Below, in pieces: positions 8,681-64,000 of a DNA stretch of 64,000 nucleotides; position 1 is the first letter of the stretch, and each line of letters begins with the position of its first letter. Under the pieces are notes generated by a model, which searched no databases, was not told where the DNA came from, and saw only the letters and a program-made list of their open reading frames with translations. Made by a program: the position numbers and the translations under genes. Origin of the DNA: Planctomycetota bacterium (GTDB lineage Bacteria; Planctomycetota; UBA1135; UBA2386); contig OZ245838.1 in NCBI GenBank assembly GCA_965228735.1, positions 4,992,001 to 5,056,000 on the forward strand, read 5' to 3'.

Positions 8681-10756
8681 TCAACGCCCGTTCTTCGAAC
8701 TCGTCGCCGCGGCGGCGTCCCGGTCGTTGCGATAGCGCTCGAACCAGCCGCGCACGTAGAGGATCCGCCGCAGCCGGTTGCTCATGTGCCGGCCGGCTGC
8801 GCCATGGTACTCGTCGGGCACCCGGACCATCACGGAGTCGACCTTCCGCAGCCGCAGCGCCTGGTAGTACTCCTCGGTCTGCGCCATCGGCGTGCGCAGA
8901 TCGAGTTCGCCCGTGATCAGCATCGTCGGCGTCGTCACGTTGCCGACGAGCCGCAGCGGCGAGCGCTGCCAGTGCTCCTCGATGCTCTCCCACGGCAGCT
9001 TCTCGAAGTTGGTGTACCAGTACGGCCCGTCGGTCGTGCCGACGAAGCTGATCCAGTTGGTCACGGGGAACATCGACACCGCGGCGCGGAAGCGATCCGT
9101 CATGCCGACGATCCAGCACGTCAGCACGCCGCCGCCGCTGCCGCCGTAGACGAACAGCTCGTCCTCGTCGATGTAGCCCTGACCGATCACGTGATCGACG
9201 CACGCCATCAGGTCGTCGTAGTCGCGGCCGGGGTAGGCGTTGTCGATCTGGTTGCCGAACGCCTTGCCGTAGCCGAGCGAGCCGCGCGGGTTGGTGTAGA
9301 CGACGACGTAGCCGTTGGCTGCGTGGTTCTGGCGTTCGAAGCTGAAGTCGACGCCGTACATGCCGTGCGGGCCGCCGTGGATCTGCAGGATCAGCGGGTA
9401 CTTCTTCGTCGGGTCGAAGTGCGGCGGCTTGACGATCCAGCCCTGCACCTTCAGCCCGTCGCTCGATTCGGTCCAGAAGCCTTCGACCGAGCCGAGCTTC
9501 ACGTCGGCGAGCACGTCGCTGTGCACGTCGGTCAGGCGTCGCATCACGCCGTCGAACAACGTGATGTCGGCTGGCTGCTGCGGGCCGGTCATCGTGCCGA
9601 GCACCGCGCCGCGCGCGTCGACGTCGCTGAGGCGGAACTGCAGGCCGCCGCGCGTGACCGGCGTGACCGTGCCGGCGGGATCGACGCGATACACGTGTGA
9701 CATCCCGCGATCGCGCACCGTGTAGAGCAGCGTCGAGCCGTCCTTGCTCCACATCAGGCTGCCGGGCCGCCGGTCCTGCTCCTTGTTGAGCTCGCGCTTG
9801 TCACTGCCGTCGCGCCGCATGAGCCAGATCGACGCGACGTTGTAGGTGTCCGTCGTCTTGTCGTGACCCGTGTAGGCGATCCACTCGCCGTCGGGCGAGA
9901 CGACCGGGCCGCCGTCCGGGCCCTCGCGATCGGTCAGCTGGCGCACGTCGCCCGACTCGACGTCGAGCGCGTAGACTTCCGACTCCTGTACCTGCCAGTC
10001 CGCGTCCTCGACGCGCAGACCCGAGAACAGGATCTCCTGGCCGTCCGGCGTCCACTCGGGTGAGCCGTGGTCGTAGTCCCCGTTCGTGAGCTGCTTCGGC
10101 GTGCCGCCGGTCGCGCTCACGAGGAAGATGTGGCGGTGACCGCTCGGCCGGTAGCCGCTGCGGTCGCGCCGGTAGCTGAGGCGCGTGATGACGGTCGGTT
10201 CGGGCGCCCACTTCGCGCCCTTGGGGCGCTTCGGCAGCTTGATCGGGAAACCCTTCTTCTCGGGCACCTGCATCGTGAACGCGAGCTGCTTGCCGTCGGG
10301 TGACCACCGCACGCTGCCCGGGCTCTCGCTGACGTGCGTGATCTGCGTCACGGAGCGATCGTCGAGGTGCAGCACGTGGATCTGGCTGCCCTTCGGCTCG
10401 CCGCTCCGCGTGAACGCGATGCGCGTGCCGTCGGGCGACCAGCGCGGTGAACTGCCCGTGGTCAGGAAGCGTTGCCGGCCGCCGTCGCGATCCATGATCC
10501 AGAGCTCGCTCTGCATGCGGTCGTTGACCTGATCGGTCCAAGAGCGCGAGTAGACGATCTGCTGGCCGTCGGGCGAGAACCGCGGGCTGCCGACGCGCTC
10601 CCAGTCGAGCATCTTGTCGAGCGTGAGCGTGCCCTCATCGGCGTGGTCCTTGGCCGGATCATCGGCGGCGCCGCCTTGCGCGAGCACCGCGGGTGATGCG
10701 ACGAGCGCGGTGGCGGCGGTCAGCAGAACGGAACGAAACGAGCGACGGCGACGCAT
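8681..10756 (-). CDS. S9 family serine peptidase (acylaminoacyl/dipeptidyl peptidase-like) with a PD40 beta-propeller
   Basis: WSPDG repeats; IHGGPH; GGSGGG nucleophile; DLRTP Asp; EYHG His; N-terminal signal peptide. Confidence 0.93.
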   Translation of the reverse strand: MRRRRSFRSVLLTAATALVASPAVLAQGGAADDPAKDHADEGTLTLDKMLDWERVGSPRFSPDGQQIVYSRSWTDQVNDRMQSELWIMDRDGGRQRFLTTGSSPRWSPDGTRIAFTRSGEPKGSQIHVLHLDDRSVTQITHVSESPGSVRWSPDGKQLAFTMQVPEKKGFPIKLPKRPKGAKWAPEPTVITRLSYRRDRSGYRPSGHRHIFLVSATGGTPKQLTNGDYDHGSPEWTPDGQEILFSGLRVEDADWQVQESEVYALDVESGDVRQLTDREGPDGGPVVSPDGEWIAYTGHDKTTDTYNVASIWLMRRDGSDKRELNKEQDRRPGSLMWSKDGSTLLYTVRDRGMSHVYRVDPAGTVTPVTRGGLQFRLSDVDARGAVLGTMTGPQQPADITLFDGVMRRLTDVHSDVLADVKLGSVEGFWTESSDGLKVQGWIVKPPHFDPTKKYPLILQIHGGPHGMYGVDFSFERQNHAANGYVVVYTNPRGSLGYGKAFGNQIDNAYPGRDYDDLMACVDHVIGQGYIDEDELFVYGGSGGGVLTCWIVGMTDRFRAAVSMFPVTNWISFVGTTDGPYWYTNFEKLPWESIEEHWQRSPLRLVGNVTTPTMLITGELDLRTPMAQTEEYYQALRLRKVDSVMVRVPDEYHGAAGRHMSNRLRRILYVRGWFERYRNDRDAAAATSSKNGR

Positions 10757-58535: not shown

Positions 58536-58612
<77 letters not shown>

Positions 58613-58615
58613 CAC

Positions 58616-58667
58616 AGAACCCCTCGGAATGGCCCTCTAGGGCATGTTCCGAGGGGTTCTTCGTTTC
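58616..58667 (+). terminator. Hairpin/terminator after tRNA-Asp
   Basis: 14-bp stem AGAACCCCTCGGAA/TTCCGAGGGGTTCT followed by TCGTTTC. Confidence 0.65.
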
Positions 58668-58851
58668 AGGGGCGAAACGGGGGAATCCGCGTCTTTCGCG
58701 AGAGCCGTGTCACCCAGGGTGTCACCGGGCCGCGAGCCGCCTCGACGAGTGCGAGGTTGCGCTCCAGATACGACGACGCCCGGCGATCGAGGAACCTTGG
58801 CGGGGGACCGATCGTCGGGCGCTGTCCGAGCAGGAGGATCACCCGCGGCGA

Positions 58852-60435
58852 ATGCCGAGGGGGTTGCTCGTGACCGGCCACGATACAGCGGCCGTTCTGG
58901 CCGGCCAAGTGTCCGGGCAGCTTCGCGGCGAAGCGCACCTGTGGTTGCCGCGGGGCGTTGGGAATCCCGGCCTGCTCCTGGCACTCGCGCTCGATCGGGA
59001 CGCCGGCTGCCCCGACAACTGCACGGCGATCGGTCGGATGTTCGGAGTCGACCGCGGCACGGTCCGCGAGTGGAGACGGAAGCTCGAGGCCGACGGTCTT
59101 GTCGTGCCGTGCAACGGCTTCATCGTGGCGACGGACCTGGGTCGGGAGCGGCTCAAGGCGGGCTGCGACCCATTGCCGCGTCCAGTTCTTCGCGCACGGC
59201 GCAAGCCGTCGCCGGCCGTTCTCCGTGCATGCAGCGTCGTCTACACGGACGCTGTCGGGTGGCAGTCCGGACGCCGCGGATGTCGTAGCGACGCGGAGCG
59301 TGCGGCGCTGGCCGGGGTCGACCGGAAGACGGTCATCGCGGCCCGGCGCGTCTTGGTCGCCGGTGGTCTGGTGCAGATCGAGGAACTCCGGCGAGGACGG
59401 GCCGACCTACGGCGGGCTCGTTTGACCCAGGACCGCCGGGCGACTCACGGCCGGCCGATGTCCGAGACCCGTGCGAAGCAACTCGCAACCCGTGCTGCGC
59501 GTGGTCGTTCGCGTGTTCGCGAAGGTGGGGGATTCACGGACAGCGAAGGTGCGGCACTCTCGGACCCACCCATGCAGTCCCCGAAGGGGACGTTACCCAT
59601 GCAGGCGCCGCCGGCGGCGCAGGATGGTGCCGCTGCGCAGCTTCGACCGGATGGTTGTGCCACCCAGCAGAGACCTGAGCGCCGAACTCCCGCCACCGCC
59701 ACGTCGGCTGTGACTCTCGGGACGGCGTCCGCGGCCGAGGTTCTTCGGCAGGTGCTGCCGGACTTGCCGGCCGCGATCCGAGACCGAGCGTCCGAGCAGC
59801 AGCCGCACCGCGATCGGGTGCGCGAGGGCCTGGCACGCGCCGACCTCGCCCGCCTGCGTCGCGTGCCGGTCGTCGCAGCGATCGACGCCGTGCTGGGGCT
59901 CGCCGACGTCGACCGAGTGCCGAACGCTGGGCCGCGCTTGGCCGGGCAGTTGGTGGTCCGCCGCCGCCGCCGCGCGGTCGCGCTCGCCGCGGCCGGTCTC
60001 GACGTCGACGACGTGCTTCAGGTCGCCGTAGACGCCGCGACGGACCCGGTCCGCTCGGTCGGCGCAGTCGTCGCGCAGCGGTGCGCCCGGCTAGCCAGCG
60101 GCGCAGTCGGGGTTTGCGATGTCGTCCGTCGATCGCGCCGCGACCTGGACCTCGATCAGCGGCTCGCGGTGCTGCGCGGTGACGCGCCCGAACGGCGGCA
60201 CGACCCCGAACCTCGTGACCACGCCCCCCACCAGCGACTTGCGATGCTGGCCGCGGCCGAGGCTGCGCGGACCGACGACTGGCGCCGGGTCGACGCGCTC
60301 GTGCGCCGGCACGACTTGTCTCTCGACGAGGTCGCCGACGCGGCCGGCGTCTTCGAACGCGAAGTGCAGGAGCACCTCGACGACCTCACTTCCGGGCAGC
60401 TTCAGCGGTTCAACGCCGGGAGGGCGACCGCGTGA
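58852..60435 (+). CDS. Multi-HTH replication-initiator-like protein
   Basis: Two similar wHTHs (GVDRGTV..LEADGLV; GVDRKTV..LVAGGLV), low-complexity linker, C-terminal HTH LSLDEVADAAGV; start uncertain. Confidence 0.6.
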   Translation: MPRGLLVTGHDTAAVLAGQVSGQLRGEAHLWLPRGVGNPGLLLALALDRDAGCPDNCTAIGRMFGVDRGTVREWRRKLEADGLVVPCNGFIVATDLGRERLKAGCDPLPRPVLRARRKPSPAVLRACSVVYTDAVGWQSGRRGCRSDAERAALAGVDRKTVIAARRVLVAGGLVQIEELRRGRADLRRARLTQDRRATHGRPMSETRAKQLATRAARGRSRVREGGGFTDSEGAALSDPPMQSPKGTLPMQAPPAAQDGAAAQLRPDGCATQQRPERRTPATATSAVTLGTASAAEVLRQVLPDLPAAIRDRASEQQPHRDRVREGLARADLARLRRVPVVAAIDAVLGLADVDRVPNAGPRLAGQLVVRRRRRAVALAAAGLDVDDVLQVAVDAATDPVRSVGAVVAQRCARLASGAVGVCDVVRRSRRDLDLDQRLAVLRGDAPERRHDPEPRDHAPHQRLAMLAAAEAARTDDWRRVDALVRRHDLSLDEVADAAGVFEREVQEHLDDLTSGQLQRFNAGRATA

Positions 60436-60701
60436 AGTCCGCGACCTACATCGGCATGCAGAGGCACCGCCGCATCGATGGCGGCGAGCACCTCCGCGGC
60501 CAGTTCGACCGCGACATCGCGATTGCGGCTGGCACGGAAGTCCTGCTGCGGCGTGATGGCTACGACTACGTGCTGCAACTCGTGGCGCCGGGGAAGCCCT
60601 GGGACCCGACCAAGCGCGAGCGCGCGGCGGTCGAACTCGCCAACGCACCGCGTGGCGCGCTTCGACGTGACCCGCGGCATGAACCCGAGGACATGCCATG
60701 A
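60432..60701 (+). CDS. Small hypothetical protein
   Basis: GTGA overlap with the upstream gene; GGGAGGG RBS. Confidence 0.55.
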   Translation: MKSATYIGMQRHRRIDGGEHLRGQFDRDIAIAAGTEVLLRRDGYDYVLQLVAPGKPWDPTKRERAAVELANAPRGALRRDPRHEPEDMP

Positions 60702-60846
60702 CACGCGCGCTTGTCTGCCAAGTCGCACGTCCTGCGGATTTCGCCCGGCAAGTCGGGCACCGGCCGCCGCGCGCGTGCGGCCAGTCTCTCCTTCCGCCGC
60801 ACAGCGCCACGTTGGCGGAACGCGGCAACCTCTGTGATCCGAAACC

Positions 60847-61674
60847 ATGACTACGAACGACACCAGCGACGGCGGCCAGACCGCCGACATTCTTGCGGCG
60901 CTGCAGCAGCGTCGCGTCGATGAAACGACCGCCGCTGCCCAGCAGCACGCGGCCGATACCAGCGTCTACTGGGGGGCCGTCCGGCACTTGGCCGGCGACG
61001 GCACCGAGGCCCCGCCCGTGGACGCTCTCGACGCCGCCCTGCGTCGACTCGGCACCGTTCCGGGCGCCCTCCGCGCCGACGCCGACGCTCTCGCCCGACT
61101 GCTCCGCCTGCGCAACGCGGGCGACATCTCCGAGGCGCGCGAGGGCGTCGATGCAGCCCGCGTTGCCCTCGATGCCGACCTGCAACAAGCAAGCGACCTG
61201 CGCGCTCAGGCCGACCGGGTCGAGCGGGAGGCGCACGCCAAGCTGGGCGCCGCCGAGAGAGCACTGGCCCGCACCGAGAAGGCCGCCGCGGACGCCACGC
61301 GGCTCACCGAGGCGCTTCGCGCGCGCGGCTGCCCGCTCAACCCGACCGATGAGCCGGCGCCGGCGCCGAAACGCCGCGACCTCCATCGGGCACGGACCCT
61401 GATCGACTGCTTCGTTGACGGGCGCGCTCGTCGGGCGGGCGAGGAGTTCGTGACGCATGTGTCGCCCCGCGATGGCGTTCTCGAACTCGTTGGCGCACAA
61501 GGCGAGCCCGCGGCCCCGCGCTGGAACGGGGGCGACCCCGTGCCCCTGAAGCGCGGCGACGACAGTGGCATTGACAGCCGCGATTGGGGCGGCGTTCTCG
61601 GCGTCGATGGATTCCGGGCGCGCCAGGAGGCTTTGGCCGCGCAGGCGGCGACCGCTGAGGGGGCTCCGAAGTGA
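60847..61674 (+). CDS. Hypothetical coiled-coil protein
   Basis: Ala/Arg/Glu helical core; small C-terminal beta domain (RARTLIDCFVDGRARRAGEEF). Confidence 0.65.
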   Translation: MTTNDTSDGGQTADILAALQQRRVDETTAAAQQHAADTSVYWGAVRHLAGDGTEAPPVDALDAALRRLGTVPGALRADADALARLLRLRNAGDISEAREGVDAARVALDADLQQASDLRAQADRVEREAHAKLGAAERALARTEKAAADATRLTEALRARGCPLNPTDEPAPAPKRRDLHRARTLIDCFVDGRARRAGEEFVTHVSPRDGVLELVGAQGEPAAPRWNGGDPVPLKRGDDSGIDSRDWGGVLGVDGFRARQEALAAQAATAEGAPK

Positions 61675-62078
61675 CCACGAACATCGACCTGGCCGCGGCA
61701 GCGCGCACTCTCTACGGCAGCGGCACGACTCCACCCCCGGCGCCTGTCGGTCCGCCTTCACCGTCGAAGAACCTAGGCTTCGATGAGGCAGCAAAGTTGG
61801 TCTACGCCGACCAGCCGGCGCCGGCCCAGGAACTGCCGACCTCCCGCGACTTGAACGGCATCAGCGTCTTCGGCAGTCGCGATGATTGGCGCGAGGAGAT
61901 CCTGGGCCGATACGGTGCGGATCTCGACATCGCCACGCGGCTCGCGGCCCGAGGGCTGCTCGCCGATTCGGCTGATCCAGCTGCTGCGCGCCGCGCGATT
62001 GGGGAGCACGGCATCACGCCACGAGAGTTCCGCCGACTGGTGGAGATCGGAGCCGCACTGCGGACGGGGTCACGATGA
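61671..62078 (+). CDS. Hypothetical protein, capsid-scaffold-like features
   Basis: GTGA overlap; AARTLYG / AAKLVY motifs, Pro-rich linker, WREE...IG helical C-terminus. Confidence 0.55.
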   Translation: MTTNIDLAAAARTLYGSGTTPPPAPVGPPSPSKNLGFDEAAKLVYADQPAPAQELPTSRDLNGISVFGSRDDWREEILGRYGADLDIATRLAARGLLADSADPAAARRAIGEHGITPREFRRLVEIGAALRTGSR

Positions 62079-62491
62079 CCGCGTTGCCCCCGGAGAATCT
62101 GGTGAAAACTGGTGCGACTGACCCCGAGCGCGATGATCGCGGTCGTTTCGTCGCAGGCCACGTTGGCCGCGGTGGCAGGCCGAAGGGCTACGACTTCCGC
62201 AAGATCGTTGCCGAGGAGTCCGCCAAGCATGGCGTGCCGGTCGAAGTTGCCGTGTGGGCGATCTACACGGCCCTACTGAAGCGAGCGCGCCGGGGCGACG
62301 TTGCTGCGGCGCGAATCCTCCTCGACCGACTCTGCCCTCGGGACGAGACGATCCACATCACCGACGATCGCCCCCGAATGACCGACCTGGAGCGCGGCGT
62401 CCGAATCGAGCAACTGCTGGCGATCGCCGCGCGACGAAAACGAGAGGCGGAGGAAGGCGACAGTTCCGGTGATGATGACAGCGCCGAATGA
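62075..62491 (+). CDS. Terminase small subunit-like protein (DUF5681-like)
   Basis: ATGA overlap; RDDRGRFVAGHVGRGGRPKG; ARRGDVAAARILLDRL. Confidence 0.65.
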   Translation: MTALPPENLVKTGATDPERDDRGRFVAGHVGRGGRPKGYDFRKIVAEESAKHGVPVEVAVWAIYTALLKRARRGDVAAARILLDRLCPRDETIHITDDRPRMTDLERGVRIEQLLAIAARRKREAEEGDSSGDDDSAE

Positions 62492-63047
62492 CCGCATCGA
62501 ACCAGGTTGGATTCGACGCGCCATGTCCGCGTGGCGCCGGCCCGACCGTCTTCCGAAGATGGACTCGCTCGGCGTCGTCTCGTTCGCAACGCACACGATC
62601 ATCGGGCGCCGACATGATGTTTGGCTCGACGTCGCGCTGGTGCATTCGCACCCTCGCGGCACTGACGCCCCCACGGTCGCCGGCTGGGTTGTCGCCGCGG
62701 TGCGGGACGAGGCCCCGATTCATGTCGTTACCGACGGCGCATGCTGCCCGGTTCTCCACCTCCGCCAACTCGGGGTGCAGATCGAGAATGTCGGCGAGGC
62801 GGACGTCTGGGCGTTGCGTCAGCGCCTTCGGGACGCGCTCGACCCACGCACCATCGACAGCATCGTGCTACCGCCGGATCCGTGCCTGCTCGACGCGCTG
62901 GCGGGCCAGGGGGACGAGGATGGACGGGGCCTGGCGACGATCCTCGCGATGGCCGACACGCCGCGACGATCGGACGTCCTCGACCGTGCGCGGTGTGATG
63001 ACCGACGCGAGTTCAATCCGCTGAGTCCGCGCGCGCTGTGGCGCTGA
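62472..63047 (+). CDS. Stand-alone terminase large subunit C-terminal nuclease-like domain, degenerate
   Basis: WIRRAMSAWRRPDRLPKMDSLGV, TIIGRRH, PTVAGWV, APIHV, LRDALDP..IVLPPDP.LL; GGAGG upstream. Confidence 0.6.
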   Translation: MMTAPNDRIEPGWIRRAMSAWRRPDRLPKMDSLGVVSFATHTIIGRRHDVWLDVALVHSHPRGTDAPTVAGWVVAAVRDEAPIHVVTDGACCPVLHLRQLGVQIENVGEADVWALRQRLRDALDPRTIDSIVLPPDPCLLDALAGQGDEDGRGLATILAMADTPRRSDVLDRARCDDRREFNPLSPRALWR

Positions 63048-63075
63048 CGCCACCGCCGGTATCGTCGCATCCATC

Positions 63076-63363
63076 GTGCGCCTCCTGCTACGACGCGCCC
63101 CGGTTGAGCCGAAGCCGCGCAGACTCGGCGATGAGGTGCGGGTGCCGCAACTTCTCGCGGCGGAACTGCAGGTCATCGCGGCACGCTGCGACGGCGAGCT
63201 ACGCGCGCTGCAAGCCGCCGCCCTGCGCGCGCACAGCGACGTTCGGCGTGAGCTTCGACGCAGGGTCGCCGACGCCGAAGCTGACGTCGCTGCGGCGCGC
63301 AGCGGCGCTCAGGAGGCAAGGCGTTGGGCAGGCGAACTGACCGCGGCCTATTGCCTGGAGTGA
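63076..63363 (+). CDS. Small helical hypothetical protein
   Basis: Co-oriented ORF, Ala/Arg/Glu-rich; start uncertain. Confidence 0.4.
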   Translation: MRLLLRRAPVEPKPRRLGDEVRVPQLLAAELQVIAARCDGELRALQAAALRAHSDVRRELRRRVADAEADVAAARSGAQEARRWAGELTAAYCLE

Positions 63364-63496
63364 CGTGCGACTTGAGGGTTTGTCGCACGCAGCTGAGGCG
63401 GGTCGCGCTACCGCGCCTGCGGAAGTGGGCGATTCCGCAAGCCGCTGGCCAGACTAGCGGCGCGACGCGGAGTTCTGTTCGGGGAGAGTCGTCGCC

Positions 63497-63934
63497 ATGG
63501 TCGCCATGAGAACCGCACTGGTCGTCGCACTCCTGCATGTTGGAGCCCTAGCGCTGGTTGCCTTGCTGCGGAGCACTGCTGACCTGAGCGTTCGCTCCGT
63601 CGCTATTCGTGGCTCGTTCTCGCGGATTGAAGTTCCTGGAGTCGCTGAGCATGCGCCAGACACTTGGCAGGCGTTGCTCGACGCTGCAACGCCATGGCAG
63701 CCTGCGGTGACGAGCACGGCACCGACTTCGAACACGTCGAAGGGCGGGACTGATAGATGCGGCGTCCGATTCGGCGCAAGCGCCCAACGCCCGAACATCG
63801 ACCTTGGCGCTACTCGACTGCGCGTGATTCCACTCGAACTACAGGGAGAACTGCGCGCGGGCGGGCGCAGGGTTCAGGCTCTAGGCGATGGCGTGCAACT
63901 CGTGTCATGGCCGCAGTTCGGCGCCATCCGTTGA
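63497..63934 (+). CDS. Hypothetical protein with an N-terminal TM
   Basis: GGGGAGAG upstream; hydrophobic N-terminus; atypical codon usage. Confidence 0.3.
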   Translation: MVAMRTALVVALLHVGALALVALLRSTADLSVRSVAIRGSFSRIEVPGVAEHAPDTWQALLDAATPWQPAVTSTAPTSNTSKGGTDRCGVRFGASAQRPNIDLGATRLRVIPLELQGELRAGGRRVQALGDGVQLVSWPQFGAIR

Positions 63935-64000
63935 ACCTGGCACCTTGGATGCTCGGCTTGCGGAAACGGGAGGATTCGCAGGCCCGGCACCGCGAGCGGC

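Follow-up and report, generated by a model that had tools for sequence, protein, structure and literature searches.

We analyzed a 64,000-nucleotide stretch of DNA (G000:C1:4992001-5056000, hereafter the window) that is part of the single 7.19-Mb contig of a Planctomycetota genome and contains the left part of a 13.8-kb element integrated at a tRNA-Asp gene. The element is complete and runs past the window end; positions given with the prefix L001 lie beyond it. The tRNA-Asp(GTC) gene (58536..58612, plus strand) is the integration target, with the attL core at 58562-58625. A single further copy of the 3' part of this gene was found 13.8 kb downstream, the attR site (G000 5064355-5064417, L001 15355-15417), which is identical to attL at 63 of 64 positions. 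A tyrosine integrase gene (L001 14026-15315, minus strand; PF00589, E 1e-12; phrog_1, E 2e-39) adjoins attR. An earlier note on this DNA had proposed a new phage-satellite family at the tRNA gene and had named a downstream integrase and attR as a check; both were thus found, 7-8 kb past the window. An Rfam scan returned nothing but the tRNA and its attR copy.

Directly after the tRNA gene and a hairpin (arms 58601-58629 and 58647-58675) lies the run of co-oriented genes that the earlier note had described, and its start/stop overlaps (GTGA at 60432, GTGA at 61671 and ATGA at 62075) were confirmed in the sequence. These genes, all on the plus strand, are ORF1, encoding a protein with several helix-turn-helix (HTH) regions (58852..60435; likely start ATG 58852, stop 60435); ORF2 (60432..60701, 89 aa); ORF3 (60847..61674), whose 275-aa long-helix product is the hallmark of a wider island family; ORF4 (61671..62078, 135 aa), a candidate scaffold mimic; a gene for a TerS-like protein (62075..62491, 138 aa); a gene for a stand-alone TerL nuclease-fold domain that is predicted to be nuclease-dead (62469..63047, 192 aa); and ORF7 (63076..63363, 95 aa), the last gene of this module. 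The gene set proposed before therefore stands for the multi-HTH, long-helix, TerS-like and TerL C-terminal proteins, with ORF7 to be added.

The same genome carries a 44-kb BPP-1/epsilon15-like prophage at its tmRNA gene (L027-L029, G000 1861755-1905923), a candidate helper. Most of its genes are on one strand, and they include genes for an epsilon15-type capsid protein (NF045672, 41% identical to BPP-1 Bbp17), a portal, a scaffold, tail proteins, TerS, a 523-aa TerL, an integrase and a replication initiator. When the proteins of this prophage were compared with the whole 13.8-kb element, a match to the TerL C-terminus and a short integrase match were detected and nothing else. Pfam and PHROG scans of 20 element ORFs found no capsid, portal or ATPase families, and the sole tail row (E 0.08) falls on the TerL fragment. 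The reported lack of portal, capsid, tail and TerL ATPase genes is thus borne out, and none follow downstream that would turn the element into an ordinary prophage.

The search for the same gene order elsewhere, also suggested previously, revealed a further copy of the module in another island, and parts of it in relatives. A 7.5-kb island at tRNA-Ala of the same genome (L026 11007-18599, G000 71007-78599; 47-bp att), which has a different integrase and a DnaB/AAA replicase, keeps six genes in identical order: ORF2, ORF3, ORF4, TerS, the TerL fragment and ORF7 (33-48% identity; 33% for ORF2, 39-45% for ORF7). It thus holds a second dead TerL domain. Between the two copies, dN/dS is about 0.4-0.5 for five of the six genes by a crude Nei-Gojobori count, values that are rough because of high GC and saturation. 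A third island, 16 kb long and in tandem with the prophage (L029 5923-20000 and L030 1-2105, G000 1905923-1922105; hereafter the tmRNA island), contains a primase, an ORF3 homolog, a true scaffold homolog, and a TerS homolog immediately followed by a full TerL from a different family; capsid or portal genes were not seen in it. Clear primase/helicase genes are present in both the tRNA-Ala and tmRNA islands. In addition, an element in a genome of the same genus (G002) has the integrase, excisionase, second recombinase, Phd, ORF3, ORF4 and TerS.

At the tRNA-Asp site itself, relatives do not have the module, so that it is not a conserved core region: in 40 relatives, the matches listed end at the tRNA or its hairpin, short pieces aside. 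Other islands occupy this tRNA in three genomes (G007, G017 and G306), and in two more (G001 and G020) no att copy was found within about 17 kb of it.

The N-terminus of the TerS-like protein matches DUF5681 weakly (E 1e-4), and no curated TerS profile matched it. Where our literature search met DUF5681, no function was stated for it. Residues 101-133 are 58% identical over 33 aa to the end of the prophage TerS, and the N-domains of the two proteins gave no match. To describe this C-terminal helix, which is common to TerS proteins of BPP-1-type phages, a hidden Markov model (HMM) was built from 46 ORFs that immediately precede TerL genes of this family at other loci; ten were dropped by eye as not TerS-like, a step that favours the tail motif, and the remaining 36 were reduced to 24 tails. 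Among 5545 predicted proteins, the prophage TerS ranked first (E 6e-8) and the island TerS second (E 4e-7), the next reaching only 2e-3. Matches (E <= 8e-5) were likewise obtained for the TerS of G002 and for five homologs from the database. Other TerS proteins, that of the tmRNA island among them, have a short strand motif at the end instead. Since the helical tail co-occurs with one TerL family, and considering what is generally known of TerS, the tail would dock on TerL. A TerS profile was matched in 19 of 91 genomes of the host family. Two arrangements were observed elsewhere: an island of G337 has two tandem TerS genes with different tails (L186 5643-6484, G337:C70), and a TerS of G306 has both tail types in a row (L188 about 9920-10338, G306:C12).

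The protein encoded next, the TerL fragment, shares 37% identity with the prophage TerL, over residues 303-457 of the latter, and 32% with BPP-1 Bbp25. A predicted model (pLDDT 90) gave TerL nuclease domains in all of the top 14 structure rows (best Z 14.7, rmsd 3.5 over 158 residues), which is not independent evidence because the underlying alignment includes TerL domains; a PDB sequence search with the prophage TerL returned nothing relevant. Five complete proteins of this kind were found (the window copy, the tRNA-Ala copy, P0002, P0052 and P0053; 41-84% identical). In a tree with 20 full TerL domains, they group as a single clade (100/99, from a bootstrap that had not settled fully). P0002 appears to share a contig with the TerS homolog P0027, and P0052 with P0025. 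All five start near the interdomain linker and have the same three deletions, which in the model correspond to three surface segments and would spare the core fold. D330, invariant in 30 of 30 full TerL proteins, is replaced in all five; the GG-D loop (G334-D337) and N424/R426 are lost; and D383 is replaced in its aligned column, four members having an Asp one or two positions off. Asp persists in the D486 column, as does the arm at the C-terminus. Judging from conservation and fold, the lost acidic residues are probably the catalytic ones, and the domain is therefore predicted to be nuclease-dead. Because five related proteins keep the predicted nuclease fold, the three deletions and the acidic losses, the fragment is not simple debris. 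The earlier description as a truncated TerL was thus correct as to the C-terminal piece, whereas a one-off truncation gives way to a conserved dead domain.

Recent capture from the resident prophage was considered and rejected: the best DNA similarity is 99 bp at 72% (tRNA-Ala copy), and the clade branches apart from the prophage TerL. An alternative is that the element is a satellite in which the fragment has no packaging role, being a stable relic left from the capture of a terS-terL junction and retained for an internal DNA signal or for translational coupling. Its position directly after the borrowed tail of TerS, which mirrors the order of the phage genes, would agree with this, as would the absence of the fragment from the G002 element and the weak correlation between its conservation and that of full TerL (Spearman 0.17). 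On the other hand, five members that are 41-84% identical keep an open frame and the same deletions, these deletions spare the core fold, and differences are more frequent at third codon positions (0.55 vs 0.40/0.38 at first and second ones), as in the neighbouring genes. We regard a relic as unlikely.

The most likely role of the dead domain is that of a non-cutting competitor, because the C-terminal segment of TerL is thought to contact the portal and to keep the ATPase in an inactive state, according to the passages available of PMC5727402. It could also be a decoy for host defences of the Avs type that sense terminase, shielding the infecting helper. In the accessible part of PMC13601566, SeAvs3 binds a folded TerL nuclease domain and some Avs2 proteins respond to it; however, the same text describes Avs3 as reading active-site residues, the very ones lost here, and EcAvs2 and Upx as depending little on the nuclease domain. 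A decoy is thus quite improbable.

The distribution of the parent family bears on whether the element is just a decayed prophage. Among 90 metagenome and viral loci that match the fragment profile, 88 also encode the ATPase and two are cut at the contig end; ORF3, ORF4 and the TerS N-domain were found in none of them, and the island TerS had no match in 50,697 phage records. A truncated terL following terS is common among prophage remnants. Yet the att ends are nearly exact, the integrase is intact, there are no pseudogenes in the module and the same module occurs on two backbones, so that we give a remnant very little credence.

ORF4 had been called scaffold-like. The scaffolds of BPP-1-type phages end in a short motif, for which a set of 15 distinct 9-mers was obtained from 30 ORFs upstream of the capsid gene after three without the motif were dropped. 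Two copies of it occur close to the N-terminus of ORF4 (window p 7e-5 and 9e-4). The scaffold protein of the tmRNA island, which is in the position of ORF4, also has the motif pair at its N-terminus (rank 1) without the C-terminal copy, and it is a true scaffold homolog (E 5e-30). For ORF4 itself the short terminal motif stands and the scaffold core does not: as a scaffold-core homolog it was rejected (hhalign probability 0.4%, no HMM match). The motif pair gives ORF4 a likeness to CpmB that is no more than suggestive. An ORF4 profile was matched in three of 91 family genomes, once weakly, and a scan of the genome collection with ORF4 gave no match.

ORF3 is predicted to form long helices (pTM 0.36). 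No Foldseek match at E <= 0.001 was found in PDB or BFVD, and VIA gave a best Z of 6.6 with generic coiled coils only, on this low-confidence model; Sid and TcaP are absent among the structure matches listed. There was no Atlas match, none in the viral contig scan, and the one match in the protein database was ORF3 itself. Its profile was matched in six of 339 genomes of the order, all of the host family (three of the six had supplied the profile), and only in G000 among 401 genomes sampled from the phylum. ORF1, labelled Rep before, has HTH matches that are present but weak (replication-initiator PHROG, E 0.015; HTH_36 clusters, 0.92), and its homologs adjoin tRNAs in G018, G306, G310 and G002. 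It is likely a replication initiator.

Other islands of this genome were observed as well. A 17-kb island at tRNA-Leu (L153 2354-19800, G000 1280354-1297800; 55-bp att) contains a lambda-type TerS, a weak ORF3 homolog, and head protease/scaffold and tape-measure genes; capsid was not seen in it, and it is possibly a satellite of long-tailed phages. In G310, a tape-measure gene of a similar kind comes after ORF3. Several islands are integrated as an array at tRNA-Met (G000 4702569-4809847; att copies at 4747088, 4784800, 4807013 and 4809828), in which integrase-, primase-, DUF5681-like TerS- and large RHS-like genes were recognized by eye.

The remainder of the element flanks or follows the module. 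A 55-bp repeat (58679..58733, plus strand) with tandem GTGTCACC has an 82% identical copy near attR, and the two are likely integrase arm-type sites. A cargo block of several genes starts at 63497..64000 (plus strand) and continues to about L001 11200. It is followed by a Phd/YefM-like gene (L001 11244-11432), a second tyrosine recombinase (L001 11522-12523, plus strand) and an excisionase-like HTH_17 gene (L001 13518-13724, plus strand; HTH_17 / phrog_66 excisionase-regulator, E 1e-7; MerR only at E 0.07). No AlpA or Stl match was found among the element ORFs in the Pfam and PHROG scans. No toxin partner was seen for the Phd-like gene; it precedes the gene of the second recombinase, and G002 has the two as a conserved pair. 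Four perfect, strand-neutral palindromes, GTGCGAC-N10-GTCGCAC (63365..63388 and L001 7359, 10602 and 12528), are all the copies in the 7.19-Mb genome; every one is intergenic and inside the element, and together they bracket the cargo. Convergent genes flank two of them, and one comes immediately after the second recombinase. They are possibly cassette recombination sites or operators. Their absence from the sister islands, including those with that second recombinase, makes sites of this recombinase a doubtful reading. A second family of imperfect palindromes (TGCGGA...TCCGCA-like) occurs near the cargo start (63414, 63955 and L001 7306).

To look at activity, sequencing runs were considered, with depth taken from assembled contigs. 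Fourteen runs from seven studies contain the stretch or part of it; one is labelled a coral metagenome, and the source sample may be among them. No RNA dataset was among those listed, which carries no information on expression. In the four runs examined, coverage of the element shows next to no differences, in two of them it forms one 13.8-kb contig, and a looped unitig is compatible with the integrated and the circular form alike. In run X1 the contig depth is 11.8 for the element vs 6.3 and 6.9 for its flanks. This apparent 1.8-fold excess was rejected as a sign of excision, as an ordinary chromosomal contig reaches 10.8; depth is near flat across the element in the other three runs. Such data, the large cargo block and the second recombinase would fit an integrative element that spreads without phage particles, like cargo tycheposons, or a formerly active satellite that is now immobile. 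However, an intact packaging module is present in two islands of one genome and matches the co-resident phage type, and we consider this explanation improbable.

Taken together, the element is probably a PICI-like satellite (PICI, phage-inducible chromosomal island) of BPP-1/epsilon15-like podoviruses that works by TerS redirection. The packaging parasite proposed before is thus supported, but not as a new class, because the architecture fits PICI-like satellites. Once a helper is induced or infects the cell, the island would leave the chromosome and replicate via ORF1. Very probably, the DUF5681-like domain of the island TerS would bind a packaging site of the island itself, and the borrowed C-terminal helix would recruit the full helper TerL. 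ORF4, perhaps with ORF3, may compete with the helper scaffold for coat protein in the manner of CpmB, so that procapsids are changed or diverted; we give this an even chance. The nuclease-dead TerL domain could act at the contact of its parent domain, either the portal or the helper TerL ATPase, and bias packaging against the phage, a step that we place slightly below an even chance. More tentatively, this satellite family of Planctomycetota may assemble helper-specific packaging kits from pieces of helper proteins, namely a TerS with exchangeable TerL-docking tails, a protein with two coat-binding scaffold motifs and a domesticated, nuclease-dead TerL domain that gates the motor, the long-helix hallmark gene being paired elsewhere with a lambda-type TerS, a head protease and a tape-measure protein for long-tailed helpers.

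Several observations weigh against this satellite reading or parts of it. No empty site with the two element flanks was found in the relatives compared, and contig depth gave no sign of excision in the four runs. In the part of the prophage genes that was scanned, no repressor or lysis cassette was recognized, and the prophage may therefore not be a working helper; a 765-aa protein of its virion region matches endolysin PHROGs. The replicase role of ORF1 is weakly supported. The ORF4 motif is short, its pair ranks only sixth among 5545 N-termini, and the motif in the scaffold of the prophage itself reaches just p 1e-3. The tail of the tRNA-Ala TerS scores only weakly with the tail HMM, and ORF2 has a dN/dS near 0.9. 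The dead domain was found in one of 339 genomes of the order, and G002 has only a 66-aa ORF at its position, so that the domain is dispensable.

Known satellites offer several points of comparison. The features of P4-like satellites are Sid, Psu, Delta and the alpha primase, none of which had a Pfam or PHROG match among the element ORFs. Capsid-forming PICIs (cf-PICIs) likewise have satellite-encoded terminase parts, but theirs include a full TerL, next to capsid, portal and head-tail proteins; in the 13.8-kb element no gene for any of these was detected, and it is therefore not a cf-PICI. PICI-like tycheposons and VEIMEs (integrative mobile elements encapsidated in virions) are similarly marine and integrative, with a tyrosine recombinase and TerS; in the passages available on them (bioRxiv 2020.12.28.424599, PMC9618062), PICI-like tycheposons had no cargo, unlike the element, and neither a scaffold mimic nor a TerL fragment is described. 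In CpmB of Staphylococcus aureus pathogenicity islands (SaPIs) and in Rcm, a small satellite protein has a short helper-scaffold motif, and CpmB competes with the scaffold for coat protein (excerpts of PMC5644958 and PMC12409344). ORF4 differs in having two N-terminal copies, and the likeness is by motif alone, with no homology claimed.

Satellite proteins that act on the terminase are known from PICI-like elements (PLEs), whose Gpi and GpsAB block or bias it (bioRxiv 2024.04.22.590561, in part), and from SaPIs, whose Ppi binds TerS (passages among bioRxiv 2024.04.22.590561, bioRxiv 2020.12.28.424599 and PMC9618062). The candidate inhibitor here differs in that it derives from the nuclease domain of the helper family's own TerL. 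Known routes of interference are TerS binders (Ppi and Rpp) or a TerL binder (Gpi). A conserved dead copy of the TerL nuclease domain would, if true, add another route to these, and nature would have supplied a probe for the contacts of this domain in the motor. In the literature searched (few subscription papers, no supplements), we found no publication on an inactive or domesticated nuclease-dead terminase domain in a satellite or on phage satellites in Planctomycetota, and the literature matches listed contain no truncated large terminase. Parts of the proposal are testable without the host, because some members of the parent TerL family come from cultured phages (BPP-1 Bbp25).

The closest likeness is to PICIs and SaPIs of the pac type, which have their own TerS. 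According to the available text of PMC10085698, the PICI core set comprises an integrase with att sites, a regulation module (AlpA, MerR or Stl), a primase-replicase, a small terminase and capsid morphogenesis genes, with no tail, holin, portal or head-tail genes. The element shares with these islands the att repeats, integrase, a putative excisionase/regulator, a putative replication gene, a size in the PICI range, the absence of tail, portal and lysis genes, and its own TerS, identified by the phage-TerS tail, the weak DUF5681 match and the position before the TerL domain and likewise expected to recruit the helper TerL. It differs in its Planctomycetota host, its BPP-1/epsilon15-like candidate helper, a DUF5681-like TerS with exchangeable tails, the lack of a primase and of an AlpA/Stl match, an integrase at the end far from the tRNA, and the dead TerL domain. 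For the regulation, replication and capsid morphogenesis parts, the element offers candidates, namely the HTH_17 gene, ORF1 and ORF4. A pac-type PICI-like mode of working is thus likely, as is formal PICI membership, although the set is not complete. The tail that the island TerS has in common with phage TerS is a candidate for the helix by which TerS docks on TerL in BPP-1-type phages, the exchange of tails among islands would let helper specificity be predicted from sequence, and the element would extend PICI-like satellites to Planctomycetota.

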